Origin: a virus
Taxonomy: Duplodnaviria; Heunggongvirae; Uroviricota; Caudoviricetes
IMG/VR virus record: IMGVR_UViG_2718218304_000001
Span: 32,001-96,000 of that record
Reading direction: 5' to 3' (one strand)
Length of the DNA: 64,000 bases
Position 1 is the stretch's first letter. Each line of letters starts with the position of its first letter. Of the stretch, positions 1 through 57,203 are shown piece after piece. The position numbers were made by a program, and so were the translations under genes. The notes under the pieces are model-generated. The model did not search any database. It saw only the letters and a list, made by a program, of their open reading frames with translations, and was not told the DNA's origin.

Positions 1-123
1 TCCCATGATGGTTTCCTTATTAAGTTGCTTCAGTGAAATCATTTTCACAAATCAGATAAGGCAGAAAACAAATTGTTATCGGGTATAAGAAAATGGCGCG
101 GTTTACGCGCCATTTAAAGAGGA

Positions 124-957: not shown

Positions 958-1110
958 CACAACTCCGTAAACAACTTGTTTTCTCAATGGCGTAAATAAT
1001 ACCAGTAAGAAAACGGCTACAAAGCATAATGATCAGGTGCATGATCGATATGCAGGTTCCTCCCTGCGGCTATAGAGAAATTAAGCCAGCAATGCTGGCT
1101 TTGGTTGGGA

Positions 1111-1440
1111 TTACGCGAATACTTCAAGAAACTCCTGAACGTCCCAATGCTGGACAAGGTGAAGATAGACCTTAGAAATAACATCATTCTCGCTATCGCA
1201 TGTGAAGTAGTACTTCTGGCTGCGGTTGTATGTGTCCACACAAAATTCGCTCATATCCATAAAGTCAGCATCTTCACCCATGTCGCAAATCATCAAAGCA
1301 GGTGCATCATCACGAGTCATCAGCTCCAGCACCCATCTTGAATTAATCAGAGTGGAAGACCAACCTTCCAGCTCATAGAACTGGTCAAACTCTTTTTGAG
1401 TTAATTTCTTGATTTGGTTGATGTCGATATGTGCAAACAT
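1111..1440 (-). CDS. hypothetical acidic protein
   Basis: ORF track 1111..1461; start refined to the ATG at 1440 with AAGGAT upstream; motif-1 at 1451..1470. Acidic composition, no recognised domain. Confidence 0.35.
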   Translation of the reverse strand: MFAHIDINQIKKLTQKEFDQFYELEGWSSTLINSRWVLELMTRDDAPALMICDMGEDADFMDMSEFCVDTYNRSQKYYFTCDSENDVISKVYLHLVQHWDVQEFLEVFA

Positions 1441-1799
1441 AAAGCAATCCTTAAACAACATGTTTTCTTGATGGTGTTATTATCGCAATAACGCACAGGT
1501 GAAAAAGGATTTTATTCCGGTGAATGTGGTTTTGGCAGTGAGTTTTCAGGTTCAGTACCGAGTACACTTTTTACATTATTCTGATTTAGTGGCCGAAGGT
1601 GGCTGGTGGGCAGAATAATCCTCTCCCCGAAAACCTACTGAAATCGATTGTGACCCGTTGGCTGTCTGGCACAATTACGCTGTAACTGGGCATTCAGAGG
1701 GAATCCAGCGGTAAGTAAGTTCGCCTGCACGTGAGCGCCTCTCTTCTTCCCGCACATTACAGGTGGATAGCCGCAACTCTCCCTCTCGCTATACCGGTA

Positions 1800-1940
1800 C
1801 TCCACCGTTCCTGAACCGGCATCGAGCCTTCTCCCGAAATCCACACAGGCAACTCGACCGTTTCCCTGAAAACCTCCAGCCGTTCCCCGAAGGCAACCCA
1901 GCCGTTTCTGTAGCGGGATGCAACTTTTCCCTGTATGGAC
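1800..1940. repeat. array of ~6 imperfect direct repeats at ~22-bp spacing (core CCGTT(T)CCC(Y)GAAA)
   Basis: Read directly: ccgttcctgaacc, ccttctcccgaaatcc, ccgtttccctgaaaacc, ccgttccccgaaggcaacc, ccgtttctgtagcggg at ~22-bp intervals; a related unit near 1626. Confidence 0.45.
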
Positions 1941-1989
1941 CGAAGGCTGACCGTAGGGGTGTTACGGGGGATAAAATCAGGAGTTGAAT

Positions 1990-2020
1990 AAATACGAAAA
2001 AGGAGGCGACACCCCTCCTT
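1990..2020 (-). terminator. rho-independent terminator on minus strand (AGGAGG-loop-CCTCCT + U-run)
   Basis: Inverted repeat aggaggcgacacccctcct; on the minus strand it is followed by TTTTTCGTATTT. Confidence 0.5.
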
Positions 2021-2039
2021 CCCTCCCCACTTATACATA

Positions 2040-2860
2040 CCTGGCTTCTTCGCTATACATGTTGTGTTTTCTTCGTGTTTTATCTGTCTCAACCTCTCTA
2101 TAGGCGTTAATGCTCACCCCTTCCAGAACGTTCTATACGGCGACTATTTCTGTTGGTGAATTGGGCGTGTTGTTCTCTCTGTCGGTGTAAATGGTTTCGT
2201 TCGTTTTGCGGTGGTTCTTCTGTGGGGTGTTCTCGTCGTTTTGGTGATTGTTCTTCTCCGTCTATGGAGTAATGGCAGGTGGGCGATTCCTTTCGTTATT
2301 GTGTTTGAGTTGTTTGTCTGGAGTGTGTGAAAGGCTTTTGTAGTTATTCGTGTATTGGGTAATGGCGTTTCCCGTGATTGTTATGTTTCGTGTCTTTTGG
2401 GATTGAGAGAAACCTTGCGGTTACAGGCTTCGTTGGGGTTTCAGCGGTTCAGGTGTTTCTTCGCTGTTTGGGTAATGGCGTGTCGTGGGTATCGCGCGTA
2501 TGAATGTTTTCGGATTGCCTGTGAAAGTTAGGTTGGTTGTCCGGTAGCCTGGGAAGAAGAGGTGGGTCTTTTCGGTAGCCTGCCATAAAGAGGTTGGTTG
2601 TTTTGGGGAATGGCATATGTGTTATTTAGTTGTTTTGTTATGCCTGAAAATAAGTTGTTTATATGGTTGTGTAACGCAACGGGAACGATTTTGAGCGTGT
2701 GTTTTTGTTGGTAGTGTGTTGGATCGTCTGTGGTGAAAATTGGACGCTGTGGCGCTGTCTGCTGCGTAGAATTACGGGTATAAGCAGTGATGTGTGAAAA
2801 CGTCAATTTTTTAGACCAAATCGGGTGAAAGCGTTGACGTTTCGTTGATCTGTTATTCAG
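2040..2860 (-). other. ORF-free region with strong strand skew (plus strand G+T rich, minus strand C+A rich) and repeated GGGTAATGGCG-like units
   Basis: No credible ORF; the track ORF 2528..2884 is low-complexity. Bounded by a motif-1 copy at 2861..2890 and the minus-strand terminator at ~2000. Confidence 0.4.
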
Positions 2861-3015
2861 TTGTTTTCTTATTGGTATAAACAACGTTAACCTATTGATA
2901 TTTAAAGGTGTGATTGCAGGTATGGAAGGAGAGTAGTGGCGATCAACGGATTCTTATAGAAAAGAATCAAATTGTGACCGCCATTATCAACTGATTGATT
3001 TGTTTACTTGTGTAG

Positions 3016-3414
3016 TCAGTTCTCGAAATGAATAGGGTCAACGTAATGCCGCTCACCGCTTTTACCATTACACAGCACTGTAACTTTCGCCTTTTCACTC
3101 CAGGCTGAGTATAGAAAGTTCCCATCAGGTTGAACATGGTAACGAGAGAAGTAAACATCGCCGACTGAGGCGTCGAACATGTTCCTATCTTTTTCACTTT
3201 GGGCAAGCGAGATGGATATCACCGAATTCCCATTTGGGGAAACGATTTTAAATTTATTCCCTATATCCATAACAATATTGTAACCAGGTAATTGCTTGTG
3301 TGTTTCCGGATCTATTTTCATGCATCGTGGGTACACGATAGTGTTAGGCTCTTCAACTGGCGTGGCATTAGCAGAAAGCACAAAAAATATTAGTGCCAAT
3401 GGTGCATATTTCAT
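3016..3414 (-). CDS. secreted hypothetical protein (N-terminal signal peptide)
   Basis: ORF track; N-terminus MKYAPLALIFFVLSANA is signal-peptide-like. Confidence 0.4.
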   Translation of the reverse strand: MKYAPLALIFFVLSANATPVEEPNTIVYPRCMKIDPETHKQLPGYNIVMDIGNKFKIVSPNGNSVISISLAQSEKDRNMFDASVGDVYFSRYHVQPDGNFLYSAWSEKAKVTVLCNGKSGERHYVDPIHFEN

Positions 3415-3957: not shown

Positions 3958-4059
3958 CTCCTAAACAATTTGTTTTCTTATATGACTTATTATCTCAATC
4001 AACAAAAGGTAGAAAACAAATTGTTTTAGAGTTTGTTAAAGTCAGAAGGGGTTGTGTCT

Positions 4060-4110: not shown

Positions 4111-6144
4111 TTACTTAACCTGGTGGCCAGGTTTAGCACCGACATCCGGGCTTAACAGGAAGATATCTTTCCCGCCAGGGCCAGCAGCCATCACCATGCC
4201 TTCGGAGATACCGAAGCGCATTTTACGCGGAGCCAGGTTAGCCACCATAATGGTGTGACGACCAATCAGTGCCTGTGGGTCTGGATAAGCAGAACGAATG
4301 CCGGAGAAGACATTGCGTTTTTCACCGCCGAGATCCAGCGTCAGGCGTAGCAGTTTGTCAGAACCTTCTACAAACTCTGCGTTTTCAATCAGCGCCACGC
4401 GCAGGTCAACTTTGGCGAAGTCGTCAAAGGTGATAGTTTCCTGAATCGGGTCGTCAGCCAGTGGGCCAGTTACCGGTGCGGCTGTGGCTTTCACTTCTTC
4501 TTTGGATGCTTCCACCAGTGCTTCAACCTGCTTCATATCGATGCGGTTATACAGTGCCTTGAACGGATTCACTTTATGGCCCAGCAGCGGTTGCTGGATA
4601 CCATCCCAGGTCAGTTCTGTATTCAGGAATGCTTCTGCACGTTCAGTCAGTTTCGGCAGTACCGGCTTCAAGTACGTCATCAGCACGCGGAACAGGTTAA
4701 TGCCCATAGAGCAAATCGCCTGCAGATCGGCATCGCGTCCTTCCTGCTTCGCCACCACCCACGGAGCCTGTTCATCGACATAGCGGTTAGCCAGGTCAGC
4801 CAATGCCATGATTTCACGGATAGCTTTACCAAATTCGCGGCTTTCCCATGCTTCACCAATCACTTCAGCAGCATCAGTGAAGGTTTTATACAGTTGCGGG
4901 TCAGCCAGTTCGCCTGCCAGCACACCGTCAAAACGCTTATTGATAAAGCCCGCGTTACGGGACGCCAGGTTAACCACTTTGTTAACGATATCGGCATTCA
5001 CACGCTGAACGAAATCCTCCAGGTTGAGATCGATATCATCAATACGCGAAGAGAGTTTCGCAGTGTAGTAGTAACGCAGGCTGTCAGCGTCAAAATGATT
5101 CAGCCAGGTGCTGGCTTTAATAAAGGTGCCGCGAGACTTGGACATCTTCGCGCCGTTCACCGTCACATAGCCATGAACAAACAGGTTGGTCGGCTTGCGG
5201 AAGTTGCTGCCTTCCAGCATGGCAGGCCAGAACAGGCTGTGGAAGTAAACAATATCTTTACCGATGAAGTGGTACAGCTCGGCGGTGGAGTCTTTCTTCC
5301 AGTATTCATCGAAGCTGGTGGTATCGCCGCGCTTGTCGCACAGATTCTTGAAGGAACCCATGTAGCCAATCGGCGCGTCCAGCCAGACGTAGAAATATTT
5401 GCCCGGCGCGTTCGGAATTTCAAAACCGAAGTAAGGCGCATCGCGGGATATATCCCACTGTTGCAGGCCGGATTCAAACCATTCCTGCATTTTGTTCGCC
5501 ACCTGCTCCTGCAACGCGCCGCTGCGGGTCCATGCCTGCAACATTTCGCTGAAAGAAGGTAGATCAAAGAAGAAGTGTTCGGAATCACGCATTACCGGGG
5601 TAGCGCCAGAAACCACCGATTTCGGCTCGATCAATTCAGTCGGGCTATATGTTGCGCCGCAGACTTCACAGTTATCGCCGTATTGATCTGGCGCTTTACA
5701 TTTCGGGCAGGTGCCTTTTACAAAACGATCCGGCAGGAACATGCCTTTTTCCGGGTCGTACAACTGAGAGATAGTGCGGTTTTTAATAAAACCGTTCTCT
5801 TTCAGGCGAGTATAGATAAGCTCAGACAACTGACGGTTCTCTTCGCTGTGCGTCGAGTGATAGTTGTCATAGCTGATGTTAAAGCCTGCGAAATCAGTCT
5901 GGTGTTCCTGACTCATTTCGCCAATCATCTGCTCCGGTGTGATACCAAGCTGCTGTGCTTTCAGCATGATCGGCGTACCGTGGGCATCGTCGGCACAGAT
6001 GAAATTAACCTCGTGGCCGCGCATTCGCTGGTAACGAACCCAGACATCAGCCTGGATGTGCTCCAGCATATGGCCGAGGTGGATTGAGCCGTTAGCGTAC
6101 GGCAGCGCGCACGTCACCAGAATTTTCTTCGCGACTTGGGTCAT
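4111..6144 (-). CDS. metG: methionyl-tRNA synthetase
   Basis: Translation starting [29 protein letters not shown] matches E. coli MetG over its full 677 aa as I recall it; the ORF-track start at 6273 is an upstream in-frame extension. Confidence 0.95.
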
Positions 6145-6301
6145 AGTAGGCATTACTTCTTTGTAGTGAAAAGGGGCTTGATAGTAACAAAATGGCCTTA
6201 TGTCTGCCATGTGATAACAGCATTTCTCATAAATGATTAAATGTCGTAGCTGGAGTACACTACAAGGCGACAATTGCGCAAATTAAAATAAAGGAGACGG
6301 G

Positions 6302-16736: not shown

Positions 16737-17033
16737 GTGTTTTTCCTAATGCTTAAACAAGTTGTTTTCTTATTGGCTTTATTGTGATGTGGCATAAAAG
16801 GGGAGCAAGCTAAACGTAAAGGTGCAAACTCTCTATTTCGGTCAACGAAACACAAGGGCCATTTGGCCCTTGTCATTAACACGTTGCTTTACGGACTAGC
16901 GGATAAGCGAAGTAGATCGCCAGACCAATGAGGACGCCATCAGAAATGACAGACATCATCTTTCCCGTAAAATCCACCAACACCGCTATCACCAGAAGAG
17001 CAATGACGGTCACAAGCCGGAATCTCTCAAGCA

Positions 17034-17459: not shown

Positions 17460-17552
17460 GTGTTTTCCTTTTGCTATTTGTCAAAACAAATTGTTTTCTG
17501 GTTACATAAATTGCTTACGCAAAGACGGTCAATGCATATGCACTAACAACCG

Positions 17553-27677: not shown

Positions 27678-27783
27678 GTGTTTTTCCTTTTTCTTTTTTA
27701 GTGCGTTTAAACAAGTTGTTATCTTATGTGTTTAAACAAGGCTTACAAATCAAAGAGAAGGTGGGGATATCCCCCACCATATG

Positions 27784-31495: not shown

Positions 31496-33401
31496 AGCTG
31501 CGCCCCTCTTTAACTTCCAGCGTAATAGTTTCCCGGAACCACGACTTCATCTCTTTATGGGAGATAATCAGCACAGTACCTCGCTCGCGAGCTTTGGACT
31601 CCAGAATACCCATGAGGCGTTCAAGACCGGCTGTATCGAGTGCATCGTCAATTTCGTCGCCGATAAACAAATCGATGTTTTTACTCGCCCGGTTACTAAC
31701 CAGATCCTGCAATGCCAAAGAACACGCAATGCGAACCTTCCGCTTCTCACCACCAGAGAGGGTTTGGAACGACTTACTTGAACCTTTCTTCTGCACACTA
31801 ATGTTGAATTTGTCGCGATACTCACCTTTTTTAGTGACATCCATCGTCGACCACTCAGCAGTAATATTCCCGTCAGACAACGTATTGAGATACTCGGCAG
31901 TGCGTGTATTCAGGAAAGGCGTAACAGACGTCAAAATATGAGAACGCACCCCGGCAGGAGAGTAGACCTGACGAGCTTTTTCCAATAGCAACGTTTGTTC
32001 CTGAATAGCCTTCAACTCATCTTTTAAGGACTTGAAGGTAGACTTACTGGATACCAGGTTATCTTCGTGTCTGGCGATAAGAGCAATAAACGGATTAATC
32101 TCTTTTGATATACGATCGACCTCAGTACGAGCACGAGTCACAAGAGACTCAATAGCAACAACCTCCTTCTCACGATGACGCAAAGATGAGAGTTGTTTCG
32201 TAAGCTCTTCAATCCGGGCAATGATAGCCGTTACATCAGGTGTCGTTTTAACAAGGGCAGACTCAATGCTTAACGCTTTCTCAAGATTCGTTTTGTGTTT
32301 AGCCATTGCCTCTGCAAGTGTCTTCGCCTGACCAATTTCCTGACGTGCTTGTTCAATGAAATTCTCCTTCACCGTTGATAGATCTTCTTCGCAGTAGGCT
32401 TTGCCACAAGTAGGGCATGGTGATCCCACTTTAGTACCAACCTCTTCTGCTTTGGTCTTAAAATTACGCGCGCGGTTCATTGCATCAGCCTGACTATTTT
32501 CTGTAGCTTTGATGCTTGCCCGAATATCAGTTATCGCACCACGAACTTTGAGCAACTTGGCGTCATGTTCTTCTTTTGAGGCTAACTTTTTGCGCTCACT
32601 TTCGATTGCCTTCTCGGTATCACGTATCTGTTCGGGAAGAGTGCGGATCTCAAGTTCAACTTCCGTTAACTCAACTTCGGCACTGGCCAGCCCAGCCAGG
32701 GCATCGTCATAACGTTTAGAACGCTCTTGCTCCCATGATTCAGAGGAGGCTTTCGCTGACTCAATTTCTGACTGTGTTGCCTCAATGGTCGAGATTGTCG
32801 ACTCCAATTTGGTTTTAACCACATCCATACGTGCGGCAGCTGCATTAGCTCGCTCACGAGCAATAGCGTAGGCGCGTGTCAGTCTGTCAACGCCAGCGGC
32901 TTCTTCTACGATGGTTTTGAGGTTTTTGTCGGACATTCCAGGTAAATCTGGCATAGCTTCTTGGCTCGCATAGATGGAAGCCATGAAAACCTCTTTAGAT
33001 GCACCGATCAGACGCTCGACGAACTCCTGCGTCAGCGCATCTTTGCCTTTCGTCATATCGCCATCTTCACCACGAACGATAAGACGATTTTTGAACTCTT
33101 TGTGTTTACGGTGACGAATGATTGCGTATCTCTTGCCTTCATCCTCGATGGTTACTGCAACACGACAGTTCTTTTCATGGTCGGTAGACAACACATCGTC
33201 ACCCTTCACACCATGAGCTGTTTCGCCATAAAGACACCACATCAGGCTATTCATTAGAGTTGACTTTCCAGAGCCATTACTTGATGCGGAACTATCATCA
33301 CTATTAACACCCTGAATGAGCACTAAACCACGCTGATCTAACTCGACCTCCGCGCTGGCGATAGCCATAAAATTCTCAACCTGGAGCTTTAAAAACTTCA
33401 T
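31485..33401 (-). CDS. SbcC/Rad50-like ATPase (recombination nuclease subunit)
   Basis: N-terminal Walker A GVNSDDSSASSNGSGKST, long coiled-coil middle, C-terminal LSGGE signature. Confidence 0.8.
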   Translation of the reverse strand: MKFLKLQVENFMAIASAEVELDQRGLVLIQGVNSDDSSASSNGSGKSTLMNSLMWCLYGETAHGVKGDDVLSTDHEKNCRVAVTIEDEGKRYAIIRHRKHKEFKNRLIVRGEDGDMTKGKDALTQEFVERLIGASKEVFMASIYASQEAMPDLPGMSDKNLKTIVEEAAGVDRLTRAYAIARERANAAAARMDVVKTKLESTISTIEATQSEIESAKASSESWEQERSKRYDDALAGLASAEVELTEVELEIRTLPEQIRDTEKAIESERKKLASKEEHDAKLLKVRGAITDIRASIKATENSQADAMNRARNFKTKAEEVGTKVGSPCPTCGKAYCEEDLSTVKENFIEQARQEIGQAKTLAEAMAKHKTNLEKALSIESALVKTTPDVTAIIARIEELTKQLSSLRHREKEVVAIESLVTRARTEVDRISKEINPFIALIARHEDNLVSSKSTFKSLKDELKAIQEQTLLLEKARQVYSPAGVRSHILTSVTPFLNTRTAEYLNTLSDGNITAEWSTMDVTKKGEYRDKFNISVQKKGSSKSFQTLSGGEKRKVRIACSLALQDLVSNRASKNIDLFIGDEIDDALDTAGLERLMGILESKARERGTVLIISHKEMKSWFRETITLEVKEGRSYVV

Positions 33402-35615: not shown

Positions 35616-35814
35616 ATGTCATTTTTCTGTGATTGTTAGCCGAGGCAACGATAACCCACCAGGTGCGCCGAAGGTAGTAAATGCCTGTTTTAATTATTCA
35701 CATATCCACAGGATAGATCCTAATAAAGAGATCCATAGATAGATCCTTGTATAGATCAAATAAGATCCCCGATCGCTGTAAGCCGCGCCACGACTGGTCT
35801 GAAGCCATGTTCAT

Positions 35815-35925
35815 GTATGCTGTCAGCGGTAATTGATAGTCTGTCAGCGGTTCACCGTATGCTGCCAACTGTTTTTGGTATTCTGTCAGCGGCAAATCAA
35901 GTATGCTGTCAGCGGTTGAATGACA
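35815..35925 (+). repeat. upstream iteron cluster (~5 copies, consensus TATGCTGTCAGCGGT)
   Basis: Direct repeats read in sequence immediately 5' of the rep start. Confidence 0.7.
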
Positions 35926-35936
35926 AAGGTGTCCAC

Positions 35937-37031
35937 ATGTCCACAAAAAATAAAAAAGGTAAAAATAACAAAGAAGTAGAAGATAATCTCGACAACTTTG
36001 AAGAAGGTTCCCTTGAATTGTACACAGGGGAACTTGTCCCTAATAGCAACAATACAGTCCAACCAATTGCGTTGATGCGGCTGGGATTGTTCGTGCCCAC
36101 GCTCAAGGGGACAAAATACAGCAAGCGTAACAAGCCAAATGAGATCGATGCTTCAAAGGAGCTTGTCCAGCTCGAAGTAGCCCGTTCTGAAGGCTATTCC
36201 GATATCAAGATAACCGGTCCTCGTCTCGACATGGATCATGATTTCAAAACGTGGGTGGGCGTTGTGCGTTCGCTGGCAGAATACGGCGAACCTAATGGTC
36301 GTGTCGAGTTAAGCATCACGAAATTTGCGAAGTTTTGTGGCTATCCATCGTCACAGATCCGCAAAACACTCCGCGACCGGCTTACAAACAGTCTTTTGAA
36401 GATCATGCGTACAACTCTGTCTTTCCAGAGAACGTATGAAGAAAAGAACGTCGACGGCTCTAACAAGATCTCGCTTCTGATGGTGCACCTCATCAATAGC
36501 GTGGACTACAACGAGCAGAAAGATACGGTGGTGTTCTATGCAGAACCGAAGCTGGCCGAACTATATCGCTTTGACCATAAGGTTCTTTTGCAGTTAAAGG
36601 TTATCAATAAGCTACCACGCAAAGAAACAGCACAGGCTCTGTACACCTTCATCGAAAGTCTTCCAACCAAGCCTGCGCCGGTATCGCTTGCTCGATTGCG
36701 TGCGCGACTCAATTTGAGTAGCAGGAATGTCAGCTCGCAGAATCAGACTATACGTAACGGCTTAAAAGCTCTCCAAGATTTGGGCTATCTCGAATACAGC
36801 GAGATTAAGCGTGGGCGGTCGATCTATATCCAGATTCACAGCCGCAATCCAAAACTTAAAGTCGCACCGCCAAAACCTGAAGACATCGAACCCAAAAAAC
36901 CAGATGAGAAAGCCGGGGAAATTGATGCTAAACAGAACATTATCAACAAGATAACTGAACTTTCGCAGAATTTGACGCCTGAAAATATCAAGATGATTGA
37001 GATCCTTTCCAATAGTCTCAAACTGCTTTGA
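35937..37031 (+). CDS. plasmid-type replication initiator (Rep), iteron-binding
   Basis: Basic N-terminus; flanked on both sides by iteron arrays (P1 RepA-like organisation); start refined to the ATG at 35937 after AAAGGTG. Confidence 0.6.
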   Translation: MSTKNKKGKNNKEVEDNLDNFEEGSLELYTGELVPNSNNTVQPIALMRLGLFVPTLKGTKYSKRNKPNEIDASKELVQLEVARSEGYSDIKITGPRLDMDHDFKTWVGVVRSLAEYGEPNGRVELSITKFAKFCGYPSSQIRKTLRDRLTNSLLKIMRTTLSFQRTYEEKNVDGSNKISLLMVHLINSVDYNEQKDTVVFYAEPKLAELYRFDHKVLLQLKVINKLPRKETAQALYTFIESLPTKPAPVSLARLRARLNLSSRNVSSQNQTIRNGLKALQDLGYLEYSEIKRGRSIYIQIHSRNPKLKVAPPKPEDIEPKKPDEKAGEIDAKQNIINKITELSQNLTPENIKMIEILSNSLKLL

Positions 37032-37032
37032 T

Positions 37033-37560
37033 ATGCTGTCAGCGGTGAAATGTATGCTATCAGCGGCTATTTTTCTGAAAAGTATGCTGTGAACGGTTAA
37101 AGATATGCTACCAGCGGTATAGTGAGATGAACGTATGCTGTGGGCGGTAAATCATCTATCACCACTCAATGCTCTTTTATACCTCCCCAGTGGTTACTAA
37201 CCTCGAAGAGTGCATTCCATATAGGTTTGCGCTCACTAACATTCTATTCCCATTGCGCTGATTGCTTGTAGTGAAAGGCATTTATTGCCTGCTGCTCCCT
37301 GATAGAACGTATGCTGTCAGCGGTGTTTTATTGAGGAATTTTTGTTTGGATATGCTATCAGCGGTAATTAATGGTATATGTCAGACCTTCGTATGCTGCC
37401 AGCGGTAATTTTGTTCTGGTTATACCCATACCGGTACACATTATTCATGCAATGTCTTAAGTATGCTGTCAGCGGTAAAAAATCGAGTAAAGTATGCTGT
37501 GAGCGGTGAGATAGACTCTCGATATGCTATCAGCGGTAGTTGATTGTGTATGCTGTTAGC
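37033..37560 (+). repeat. downstream iteron array (~12 copies of (G/A)TATGCTGTCAGCGGT with variants)
   Basis: Copies near 37033, 37053, 37085, 37105, 37133, 37310, 37352, 37393, 37462, 37491, 37521, 37546. Confidence 0.75.
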
Positions 37561-37610
37561 GGTGACGACTATGAAATATGACTGCGGCACGTTCCGCAGT
37601 CAGTTTGCAT

Positions 37611-39130: not shown

Positions 39131-39209
39131 GTTTTCTTATCCTTTTAAACAAATTGTTTTCTTAATAAGATAATTGCGATAAAAAAGGCGTCCTGTGGAC
39201 GCCTTGTGT

Positions 39210-45503: not shown

Positions 45504-45832
45504 TGATGCCCGCCAATTGGCGGGCATCTGTTCTCTGTAAAGGTGTCTGGCATCGTCTGGTTCGTTAACGTTTACTAAACCAATGGTGACAAAAATTAGT
45601 TATCTTTGAAAAATAAAGGTTGCATGAAAAGAAGGGGTATGCGTTAATAGCATCGTTGGTTTGCAAGACAGACCTTATGTAAGCAGTTTTAGTAAAGCAG
45701 TCTCAGTTCAGTGTTATCTTCTGATTTCCCTTCTTCGTGAGTCTCCTCCTTAAGTGCCTAAGTAAGTCCCAATCTATACAGATCAAATTCTCGCCGCACT
45801 ATGTGGCTCACAAAATTAAGAAGGTAATATCT

Positions 45833-46048
45833 ATGTCTAATAAAATGACTGGTTTAGTAAAATGGTTTAACTCTGATAAAGGCTTTGGCTTTATTTCTCC
45901 TGCTGATGGCAGTAAAGATGTTTTTGTACATTTTTCGGCAATTCAGAGTAATAATTTCCGCACTTTGGAAGAAGGCCAGCAGGTCGAATTCTCTATCGAG
46001 AATGGGGCTAAAGGCCCAGCAGCAGCAAATGTCGTTGCTCTAAGCTGA
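45833..46048 (+). CDS. cold-shock protein, CspA family
   Basis: [23 protein letters not shown]...VFVHFSAIQ; start refined from the track (45737) to the ATG at 45833, preceded by AAGG and a long 5' leader. Confidence 0.85.
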
Positions 46049-46326
46049 TTCAACGCTGATGATCCTCATTTCTACAATAACGAAGACGGTGTAAGCCTGA
46101 GTGGATAGATTTGTAGGATTGTACAAGTTGAATAAATTAGCATGGTAAGGCCATGCTAATTAAATCGACACAACGGCCAGTTTATTCCATAAAAGTGAAT
46201 TGCCCATTGTGGCGAAATGCGGGGTTGCCGCATGAATAGTCAAAGGCAGAAGCTAACTGCCGGCATGGCAAAACAAAGTGCGTAAGAGGAGTGACTTCCT
46301 CAACAAGCGCCATAATTCTTTATAAA

Positions 46327-56956: not shown

Positions 56957-57032
56957 TGGTGCCGGTTAACGGGATCGAACCGCTGACATCCTGCTTACAA
57001 GGCAGACGCTCTACCAACTGAGCTAAACCGGC
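56957..57032 (-). tRNA. tRNA-Thr (anticodon UGU)
   Basis: Hand-folded: acceptor GCCGGTT/AACCGGC, D-arm GCTCAGTTGGTAGAGC, anticodon loop CUUGUAA, T-loop TTCGATC, CCA. Confidence 0.7.
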
Positions 57033-57036
57033 AATT

Positions 57037-57123
57037 TGGTGGGGAGTGATGGAGTCGAACCACCCGAGTCGCAATGACAGTAGATTTACAGTCTACCCCG
57101 CTGCCCCTACGGACTAACTCCCC
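57037..57123 (-). tRNA. tRNA-Tyr (anticodon GUA), long variable arm
   Basis: Hand-folded: acceptor GGGGAGT/ACTCCCC, anticodon loop CUGUAAA, T-loop TTCGACT, CCA. Confidence 0.6.
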
Positions 57124-57128
57124 TAAAT

Positions 57129-57203
57129 TGGCGATGGTGGGTGGATTCGAACCACCGACCAGTTGGTTAACAGCCAACTGCTCTACCGCTGAGCTACACC
57201 ATC
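57129..57203 (-). tRNA. tRNA-Asn (anticodon GUU)
   Basis: Hand-folded: acceptor GATGGTG/CACCATC, D-arm GCTCAGCGGTAGAGC, anticodon loop CUGUUAA, T-loop TTCGAAT, CCA. Confidence 0.7.

Follow-up and report, generated by a model that had tools for sequence, protein, structure and literature searches.

A gene-free repeat region with unusual strand asymmetry in SSU5/pHCM2-type phage-plasmids, a candidate phage-mode replication origin or control region

Background

Origins of replication that combine iterons with transcriptional activation or priming have been described in phages and plasmids, and lambda ori, P1 oriR/incA and oriL, pAMbeta1, ColE1 RNA II and T4 oriF/oriG are the closest known systems to the locus reported here. 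This locus is a gene-free gap in a 64,000-nucleotide stretch of DNA, called the window throughout, which covers positions 32,001 to 96,000 of the IMG/VR virus record IMGVR_UViG_2718218304_000001 and which, judging from its sequence matches, is part of an E. coli phage-plasmid of the SSU5/pHCM2 type. All positions are those of the window unless stated otherwise. A first-pass annotation, made from the sequence of the window, had drawn attention to the stretch 1990-2900, which is the right arm of a gap of approximately 1.55 kb (1462-3015).

Like the origins named above, the gap combines six phased repeats of 22 bp in one orientation with an adjacent AT-richer segment and has additional families of repeats close by; a repressor-type operator/promoter points into it, and a putative transcript end adjoins the repeats. 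RNase HI, a 5'-3' exonuclease and a UvsW-like helicase are among the products of the phage. Unlike them, it displays about 800 bp of extreme G+T/A+C asymmetry, which has no counterpart there, and its origin activity is that of a candidate only. The element's own RepB origin, of the IncFIB/P1-like kind, also comprises direct-repeat arrays on the same replicon; it differs in its motifs, in its DnaA box and in having the rep gene in the middle.

The vertebrate mitochondrial control region consists of a G+T-rich H strand and an A+C-rich L strand and contains a D-loop. The gap resembles it in the keto/amino strand asymmetry of non-coding DNA, which there serves replication control. It differs from it in that the skew extends over no more than 0.8 kb and peaks in conserved alignment columns, so that it is not simply a deamination footprint, and in that there is no D-loop evidence here. 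No description of this region was found in the literature on SSU5/pHCM2-like phage-plasmids, whose lysis-lysogeny control and phage-mode origin are not known to have been mapped. From its sequence, we regard the gap as an undescribed repeat region of the origin/control type with an unusual strand asymmetry and a predicted functional role.

Results and discussion

The gap as candidate cis-acting DNA

The interpretation that we prefer is that the gap acts as DNA in cis, as a candidate phage-mode replication origin or control region of which the flagged tract would be the accessory arm; its probability is put at about 40 %, and it is accordingly offered as a tentative reading. The tract itself is most likely, as far as its sequence indicates, protein-binding DNA rather than a stable RNA. 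Phased repeats in one orientation, a lineage-specific sequence with a conserved architecture, silence in the lysogen and dispensability for plasmid maintenance together point to cis-acting DNA on which lineage-specific DNA-binding proteins would assemble. In addition, the gap is retained in every element that keeps the phage genes.

The stretch of about 2 kb around the tract is 97-98 % identical to non-mobilizable IncFIB plasmids of E. coli of approximately 95-115 kb (one of 218 kb), and 243 of its 243 matching places are plasmid-borne, with none chromosomal. The same stretch is 97 % identical to phage Cyrano and 67.5 % identical to Salmonella phage SSU5 over 61 % of the query. In a close relative, the annotated genes include, on the phage side, those of the tail, capsid, portal and terminase; RNase HI, a DEAD-box (UvsW-like) helicase, ParB-family proteins and enzymes of nucleotide metabolism are encoded as well. 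Replication is represented there by Pol III alpha, a DnaB-like helicase and a primase, together with a RepB plasmid replicon. The tract sits within a long block of leftward (minus-strand) early genes. The gap, delimited with the list of open reading frames (ORFs), six-frame translation and alignments and assigned to neither strand, lies between the minus-strand genes 1111..1461 and 3016..3414. It was aligned across 9 and then 45 relatives, in whose RefSeq/GenBank records it is either unannotated or filled with small, non-conserved ORFs placed on either strand.

Three families of direct repeats were found in the gap, all in the same orientation, and position-weight scans place them essentially nowhere else on a 114-kb relative. 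Family A (1799..1940, + strand) consists of six iteron-like units, cCAGCCGTTTCCCyGAAnnC, phased at 21-22 bp with one step of 31 bp. Its periodicity (lag-22 autocorrelation z = 4.27, family-wise P = 0.002) recurs in SSU5 (z = 4.1) and in the Klebsiella type (lag 21-22), and the phased one-orientation direct repeats of about 17-22 bp that distinguish iteron origins are thus present at 1799-1940.

Family B, with the consensus TTCTCCGTGTATGGrGTAATGGC, comprises three or four units on the + strand of the skewed tract: TCTCCGTCTATGGAGTAATGGCAG at 2255..2278, TATTCGTGTATTGGGTAATGGCGT at 2345..2368 and TCTTCGCTGTTTGGGTAATGGCGT at 2458..2481. The repeat search recovered all three units that the first-pass annotation had quoted (2254-2281, 2344-2371 and 2457-2484), which are thus a real family. 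The core GTAATGGC starts at 2269, 2359 and 2472 and has one further copy on that strand in 64 kb, while we estimate from the local composition that about 0.014 copies would be expected by chance in 821 nt. A degenerate fourth core (2605..2615, + strand), seen in the sequence and in the alignment, reads GGGGAATGGCA, with GGGTAATGGCA in Cyrano and GGGTAATGGCG in SSU5-type relatives. A scan of genome contigs with GTAATGGC..GTAATGG, a query that is too unspecific, returned chance matches only. A small hairpin within the B unit (CTCC-N6-GGAG) was rejected on inspection as it is not kept between the copies.

Family C (2542..2603, + strand), which had been missed at first reading, is formed by two tandem 31-bp units starting at 2542 and 2573, with the pattern CGGTAGCCTG-N-AAGAGGTkGGT (CGGTAGCCTG..AAGAGGTGGGT; lag-31 z = 5.2). 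It is detected by TRF in SSU5, has three units in a Citrobacter relative and was not found elsewhere in the window. The earlier proposal of a non-coding tract with repeated protein-binding motifs therefore stands as regards the non-coding nature and the repeats, the binding being presumed only.

Strand asymmetry and absence of coding capacity

The G+T-skewed tract (2040..2860, + strand) is composed of 30 % G, 39 % T, 16 % A and 15 % C, and its G+T content peaks at about 77 %. The description of the tract as almost pure G+T was an overstatement, the actual content being 69 %, but the skew is exceptional: the 1-kb bin 2001-3000, with a GC skew of +0.289 and an AT skew of -0.333, is the sole outlier among the 64 bins of the window, the other 63 ranging from about -0.15 to +0.16 and from about -0.19 to +0.15, respectively. 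In 200-nt windows of the tract the GC skew rises to +0.54 and the AT skew falls to -0.64, and the most skewed 600-nt window reaches 71.5 % G+T, which is 6-7 standard deviations above the mean of the whole window (50.3 %, s.d. 3.2 %). Read in the minus sense, the tract is C+A-rich, G-poor and almost structure-free. The cumulative skew over the window, dominated by gene orientation, has no origin-like switch, and the helical periodicity amounts to a weak 10-bp signal of weak versus strong base pairs (z = 3.3). Inspection by eye gave no convincing match to a G-quadruplex, Ter, dif, matS, KOPS or boxA/nut.

The absence of a credible ORF, claimed at first reading, was borne out, as all six frames are broken in the tract. 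Indels among the relatives have lengths that are not multiples of three, the substitutions have no codon phase (p = 0.6-0.86, as against 8e-5 for the flanking gene) and no 3-nt periodicity was found in the tract. A protein-coding gene, including a frameshifted one or one for small hydrophobic + strand peptides, was ruled out by the frames, the codon phase and the 3-nt periodicity. Since the relatives keep the tract and no frameshift-corrected coding reading emerged, the expected conservation without coding potential was found.

The G+T content of 66-71 % is kept in all lineages, though the identity falls to 59-73 %, that is, 27-41 % of the aligned positions differ. Invariant alignment columns contain 72 % G+T and variable columns 61 %, which indicates that the composition is carried by the conserved motifs and is kept elsewhere too, and that it is no simple mutational footprint. 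Both the size and the persistence of the skew are unusual for bacterial non-coding DNA.

Operator-like copies, promoter candidates and the terminator

A motif designated motif-1, AGAAAACAAnnTGTTTA, was found at 24 sites in the window in comparison to 3.5 expected, for example at 63-79(+), 968-984(-), 1452-1468(-), 2645-2661(+), 3962-3978(-), 4011-4027(+), 16754-16770(-), 17483-17499(-), 27708-27724(-) and 39146-39162(-). For most copies, a -10-like hexamer precedes the motif by about 10 nt, and the start codon of an early gene follows it after 10-30 nt. By analogy, motif-1 looks like a dispersed repressor operator in the style of the C1 operators of phage P1, which it resembles as a 17-bp motif scattered genome-wide just downstream of the -10-like boxes of early genes. 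It differs from the P1 C1 operators in being palindromic (AAACAA..TTGTTT) and in that its copies in the gap have no gene behind them.

One such orphan is the full copy TGAAAATAAGTTGTTTA (2645-2661), part of an AT-rich cluster of motif-1 half-sites (2617..2661, + strand) that is conserved in all relatives. A half-copy, CCAATAAGAAAACAAC, lies on the minus strand at 2854..2877, sharing its 16-mer with the copy at 16754; within it, AAGAAAACAAC is read in the minus sense at 2870-2860, and the sequence makes it a possible repressor-controlled leftward promoter. The motif-1 copy that had been placed at 2861-2890 therefore corresponds to this half-copy and not to a full one, which lies at 2645-2661 in the opposite (+) orientation.

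A weak promoter-like pair of boxes, both conserved, is present on the minus strand at 2777..2806 and consists of TTGACG (2806-2801), an 18-nt spacer and TATACC (2782-2777). The -10 box lacks the final T and the pair was not called by the consensus promoter scan, which predicted no canonical sigma-70 promoter in any of the three sequence types compared below. The surrounding block 2777-2850 is near-invariant in the alignment and carries two back-to-back TTGAC boxes. It includes an inverted repeat (AAACGTCAA - 27 nt - TTGACGTTT, 2798..2842), seen in the sequence and the alignment, which more likely represents two protein or RNA-polymerase sites than a stem because changes in its right arm are uncompensated. 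Other near-invariant blocks of the alignment are TAACGCAACGGGA (2672..2684, + strand) and, at the right edge of the gap, TGGCGATCAACGGnTTCTTATAG (2937..2959, + strand), the latter also apparent in the conservation profile. Inverted repeats that would pair the C-rich left part with the G-rich right part over a long range have arms that the relatives do not conserve, and they were treated as chance.

The strong minus-strand terminator that had been noticed at about 1990..2020 was confirmed as an intrinsic-terminator-like hairpin of 10 pairs followed by the T-run TTTTTCGTATTT (1997..2023, read from 2023 to 1997). A homologous hairpin with a T-run is predicted in the Klebsiella type, and the SSU5/pHCM2 type keeps the hairpin without the T-run. 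According to the alignment fold, all three types preserve the 10 pairs of the hairpin, with G:C replaced by G:U in many instances; the same changes would produce C:A mismatches on the + strand, and this implies that the hairpin works only on the minus-sense strand. Some leftward transcription thus probably ends here, to judge from the sequence.

Conservation in relatives and the variable surroundings

The flagged stretch of 911 bp (1990-2900) has matches in 836 PLSDB plasmids, in nearly all of which it is unannotated. They come from Klebsiella (430), Escherichia (222), Enterobacter (90), Salmonella (49, including pHCM2 of S. Typhi CT18), Citrobacter (25) and Cronobacter (9), and the counts mirror those of SSU5-type terminase carriers (Enterobacter 90, Salmonella 50, Citrobacter 25, Cronobacter 10). 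Three main types of the gap can be distinguished, one of E. coli, one of Salmonella/Enterobacter/Citrobacter and one of Klebsiella, with 45-70 % mutual identity over the whole gap when gaps are counted. Identity to SSU5 is 67.5 % for the gap and 67.7 and 75 % for the flanking genes; by these alignments the gap is conserved about as well as its neighbours. The SSU5/pHCM2/Enterobacter type has an extra + strand ORF for an acidic protein of 80 aa in the left part of the gap (2604-2846 in L002, 1768-2010 in L005 and 1779-2021 in L008), inserted at the equivalent of window position 1510 or so, and the E. coli and Klebsiella types are without it.

A terminase match was found in 62 Yersinia plasmid records, with 96.7 % identity in the three Y. 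pestis records listed, and Yersinia was not named among the matches to the tract or to its conserved neighbour gene. One IMG/VR contig (L029 1-1330, oriented) has an IS2-like element inserted inside the B-repeat array, Klebsiella cointegrate plasmids (L010) keep only 2542-2876, between IS903B and ISPlge2, and IS5075 abuts the region in a Citrobacter plasmid (L009 4189-5193). Since no Yersinia match was named, and in view of the IS2-like insertion and of the remnants bounded by insertion sequences (IS) in the cointegrates, the gap is, on this sequence comparison, dispensable for plasmid maintenance.

This bears on the possibility that the gap is a binding platform without a replicative role, namely a centromere-like site bound by conserved ParB-family proteins whose genes lie about 10 kb away, or a cluster for repressor binding and looping by the protein that recognises motif-1. 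Same-orientation phased repeats, orphan motif-1 copies with no gene behind and silence in the lysogen would all suit such a platform, and ParB/RepB/Spo0J and ParB/Srx genes near the DEAD-box helicase are conserved in all three lineages. Nevertheless, we consider it unlikely. The lack of a named Yersinia match and the IS disruption in some isolates argue against a maintenance role, the motifs occur only here and leave no looping partner site except motif-1 itself, sites of helix-turn-helix ParB proteins are usually palindromes, and the plasmid has a more obvious partition system in another place, a small ParA-like ATPase with a partner gene.

Comparable gaps exist in more distant relatives. An Acinetobacter baumannii plasmid, whose terminase is 59 % identical, has a 1.35-kb gene-free gap at the corresponding place (record 82054-83405; L209 32054-33405) in the layout terminase ... 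ParB | DEAD-box helicase ... early genes, with six copies of the 32-nt direct repeat TATAGAAATGTAGAAAyCTAgATAGATAGA and many palindromes of the CTATCTATAG type. This gap is among the most strand-asymmetric windows of its plasmid (A >> T, local GC skew up to 0.47), the asymmetry being purine/pyrimidine and not keto/amino, and it is far from the RepM origin of that plasmid; RepM iterons have been described (PMC4411360). In Aeromonas caviae pKAM376_1 (terminase 53 % identical) a gap of 1.1 kb at the same place (record 96620-97759; L211 14621-15760) contains an AT-rich segment, then six tandem 17-bp iterons (TCCCCGCAAATGAGGA) and two 39-bp repeats. The Aeromonas relative also encodes its own Hfq (L213 1019-1342). 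The G+T skew is not shared by these two gaps; what is common to the supergroup, on sequence comparison, is a repeat-filled gene-free gap of about 1.1-1.5 kb at this position.

To the right, the gap borders on a variable slot. Gene 3016..3414 belongs to the variable cargo, and Cyrano, SSU5 and the Klebsiella and Citrobacter relatives have other genes in its place; beyond about 3000 the relatives split into different cargo genes, the slot contents differing in every lineage. At the other end, pNT1N28-108k (L006) matches the window with 89.5 % identity in the genes left of the gap but has a gap of the SSU5 type (72.6 %), which indicates a recombination breakpoint at the left edge, near window position 1460. 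A Chi octamer, GCTGGTGG (1602..1609, + strand), is located where the gap is AT-richer, at its left end; the Ec78 and KpF81 types share it, and KpJN2 has GCTGGCGG. Counted over the whole window, the + strand has 8 copies of GCTGGTGG and the - strand 6, in comparison to an estimated one or so per strand by chance.

These borders raise the question of a recombination hotspot, in which a G+T-rich, RecA-preferred and Chi-associated tract would promote cassette exchange at the edge of the cargo slot. RecA reportedly prefers GT-rich DNA, as Tracy and Kowalczykowski are said to have found in 1996, and the right edge at about 3000 next to variable cargo, the mosaic breakpoint near 1460 in pNT1N28-108k and Chi at 1602 fit the idea. 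However, Chi is on the wrong side, as DNA 3' of Chi is degraded before RecA loading, the discrete conserved motifs and their phasing are left unexplained, and any conserved segment beside a variable one resembles a recombination anchor. A hotspot therefore appears most improbable.

The tract as a possible source of RNA

The first-pass annotation had suggested a C+A-rich non-coding transcript of about 0.9 kb or a long 3' untranslated region (UTR) of gene 3016..3414. The latter can be dismissed since that gene is replaceable cargo, whereas the tract is conserved. For the former, published expression data for the Cyrano lysogen of E. coli LF82 are informative, because the annotated pseudo-ORF CYRAN_103 of Cyrano (97 % identical here) corresponds to window 2529-2885 on the minus strand. 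The value of CYRAN_103 in LB is log2(fpkm+5) = 2.32 (fpkm, fragments per kilobase per million mapped reads), that is, zero, and in macrophages it stays near the floor, where the neighbours CYRAN_105 and CYRAN_102 reach log2 values of 7.8 and 9.2 (PMC9928086 S1 Table). A constitutive or lysogen-expressed RNA is thereby excluded. With zero expression in the lysogen, no sigma-70 promoter, no T-run in the SSU5 type and no conserved structure, the proposal of a stable or constitutive RNA was not upheld.

The structure and covariance searches also came out negative. At the Rfam gathering threshold there was no match in the window or in three relatives, and at a permissive E-value only chance-level matches appeared, none of them common to the sequence types. 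Sliding RNAalifold on a 12-sequence alignment (160-column windows, both strands) gave a structure conservation index of 0.34 at most, and the sole conserved RNA structure is the small hairpin 1997-2023. The 841 nt of the tract fold with -131 kcal/mol in the minus sense (z = -1.9) and -220 kcal/mol in the plus sense (z = +0.44), relative to shuffles. An RNA anti-CRISPR made of solitary CRISPR repeat units was rejected as well, the best alignments to the I-E/I-F repeats of E. coli, Salmonella and Klebsiella being equal to those of shuffled controls.

The remaining RNA hypothesis is an unstructured, untranslated, C+A-rich lytic-cycle RNA of about 0.8-0.85 kb that would run from about 2870 or from 2806-2777 to the terminator 1997-2023 and whose repeated CGCCAUUACCC and ACCCACCUCUU motifs would bind or titrate a protein such as Rho or a phage or host single-strand-binding protein. 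It is consistent with the hairpin and T-run found only in the minus sense in the E. coli and Klebsiella types, the motif-1 half-site upstream, the restriction of all repeats to one strand and a nearly structure-free minus-sense RNA with C/G > 2 over about 650 nt, and silence in the lysogen is compatible with repressor control. We still find it doubtful, if less so than the other alternatives. Lysogen reads are zero, and almost none appear even when neighbouring early genes are partly derepressed; there is no canonical promoter and no terminator T-run in the SSU5 type; premature termination by Rho would be expected of such a C-rich untranslated RNA; and the Acinetobacter and Aeromonas gaps keep repeats, not the C+A composition. 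The signatures of sponge RNAs are absent too: (ARN)4 of the Hfq type is not enriched (1 observed, 1.5 expected), nor, by eye, is GGA of the CsrA type, and no Rfam family was found. The likeness to protein sponges (CsrB/RsmZ, CrcZ) lies in a short motif repeated on one strand of a non-coding stretch that is bounded by a terminator; unlike them, the tract has no GGA or A-rich enrichment, no hairpin-loop presentation, no lysogen expression and no Rfam match.

The hypothetical minus-sense transcript, with 28-40 % C and 6-18 % G, would by its sequence be textbook Rho-loading material, being C-rich, G-poor, unstructured and untranslated. It has C/G > 2 in 16 of the 21 78-nt bins, above the 95th percentile of the window. 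In these properties it resembles Rho-dependent terminators and rut sites, e.g. lambda tR1, including the required length of at least about 80 nt; unlike a rut site, the tract is ten times as long as needed and has conserved phased repeats.

A Rho-loading zone together with the intrinsic terminator that closes the tract could serve as a transcriptional insulator, blocking read-through from a constitutively expressed cargo (moron) slot on the right into the repressed early genes on the left. The C/G ratio just given fits this idea, as do the expression of the Cyrano moron CYRAN_102 just upstream, the zero value of CYRAN_103 and the background level of the downstream early genes. However, the reads are already zero at 2529-2885, so that termination precedes any use of the skewed tract, an insulator would need neither about 800 bp nor conserved phased repeats or orphan operator copies, and the distant relatives keep the repeats and not the C-rich composition. 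An insulating role is hence quite unlikely.

A possible mechanism and its difficulties

The plasmid-mode replicon of the element is located at 35694-37583, with repB at 35817..37031, 33 kb from the tract. The RepB iteron TATGCTGTCAGCGG has about 17 copies at 35795-37583, approximately 5 upstream (21-bp spacing) and 12 downstream of repB, and a DnaA box lies at 35694, a layout that equals the incC-rep-incA of P1/RepFIB. Motifs of the RepB origin do not occur in the tract, nor the gap repeats at the RepB origin, and the tract as the RepB (IncFIB) oriV was ruled out, as the gap has no TATGCTGTCAGCGG iterons and repB is 33 kb away.

If the gap is a phage-mode origin or control region, it would be used not by the RepB system but by the phage's own machinery, i.e. 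the DnaB-like helicase, primase, Pol III alpha and RNase HI. The A array and the AT-richer left end (36 % GC at 1401-1600, a segment that is replaced or variable in the SSU5 type) would form the core, and the skewed tract with the B and C repeats and the orphan operator copies would be the accessory arm. Phage-encoded proteins may bind the A, B and C repeats to build a nucleoprotein complex. After derepression, the motif-1-type promoter near 2870 would fire leftwards across the tract, giving an RNA that would be unable to fold because the tract is C+A-rich, G-poor and untranslated in the minus sense, and that would end at the hairpin 1997-2023, directly before the iteron array. Such transcription could open or prime the origin, as in the transcriptional activation of lambda ori or at the transcript-primed pAMbeta1 and ColE1 origins. 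The skew would stem partly from the conserved motifs themselves and would partly be kept at variable positions.

Several observations weigh against this scheme. The gap departs from the described origins in that no initiator gene adjoins it: the flanking genes encode small proteins without assignable function, the 103-aa core neighbour has no confident structural match, and the helicase and primase genes are tens of kb away. No DnaA box was found in it, and the sequence types share no AT-rich unwinding element. The invoked promoter is weak by consensus, leftward lytic-cycle transcription of the tract is an inferred step of the model, and direct-repeat arrays would also suit a centromere or a platform for repressors. 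The gaps of Acinetobacter and Aeromonas and their flanking small genes are unrelated in sequence to those of the window, synteny being defined by the overall layout only. No Rep gene is annotated anywhere on the Aeromonas plasmid, which speaks for the scheme, but its PLSDB annotation is incomplete and one may hide among the 'hypothetical proteins'. As these relatives have no G+T skew, an origin role does not explain the skew itself, and why the Enterobacteriaceae lineage needs such an extreme one is not accounted for.

A variant that gives the skew a direct part is that the tract acts single-stranded, in a phage origin of the R-loop/D-loop type; from the sequence features we rate this as highly unlikely. 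Leftward transcription released from the repressor would cover the G+T-rich template with a C+A-rich RNA free of structure, the A+C-rich strand displaced by it, being unable to fold, would provide a landing pad for the helicase, and the one-strand repeats (GGGTAATGGCG, CGGTAGCCTG..AAGAGGTGGGT) would be sites for a phage single-strand-specific protein. R-loop thermodynamics, calculated with nearest-neighbour values, favour the minus-sense hybrid only slightly in 2000-2500 and disfavour the plus-sense hybrid.

Other features of the window

The phage-plasmid has a full-length gene for methionyl-tRNA synthetase, metG, at 4111-6273 (-). In the close relative metG is followed by apbC, and in some relatives a gene for an S24 (LexA-like) peptidase comes next, which is strongly expressed in the LF82 lysogen. 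A full-length match to the cspA thermoregulator 5' UTR (RF01766, 185.7 bits) at 45655-46073 (+) implies that the phage-plasmid bears a cold-shock gene, and three clustered tRNA genes lie at 56960-57203 (-).

Conclusions

Clinical Klebsiella, E. coli, Enterobacter and Salmonella commonly harbour SSU5/pHCM2-like phage-plasmids, and these elements can bring resistance genes with them. A 1.5-kb block that is present in more than 800 of these plasmids, with analogous gaps in Acinetobacter and Aeromonas, is an obvious candidate for an unmapped cis-acting element, and the gap is also a useful typing marker. If functional, its asymmetry points to a strand-specific mechanism that involves a structure-free transcript or a displaced strand. 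Should the tract indeed act single-stranded, it would correspond, in a bacterial virus, to the strand-asymmetric control region of mitochondria and would represent a new class of origin for SSU5-like phage-plasmids.

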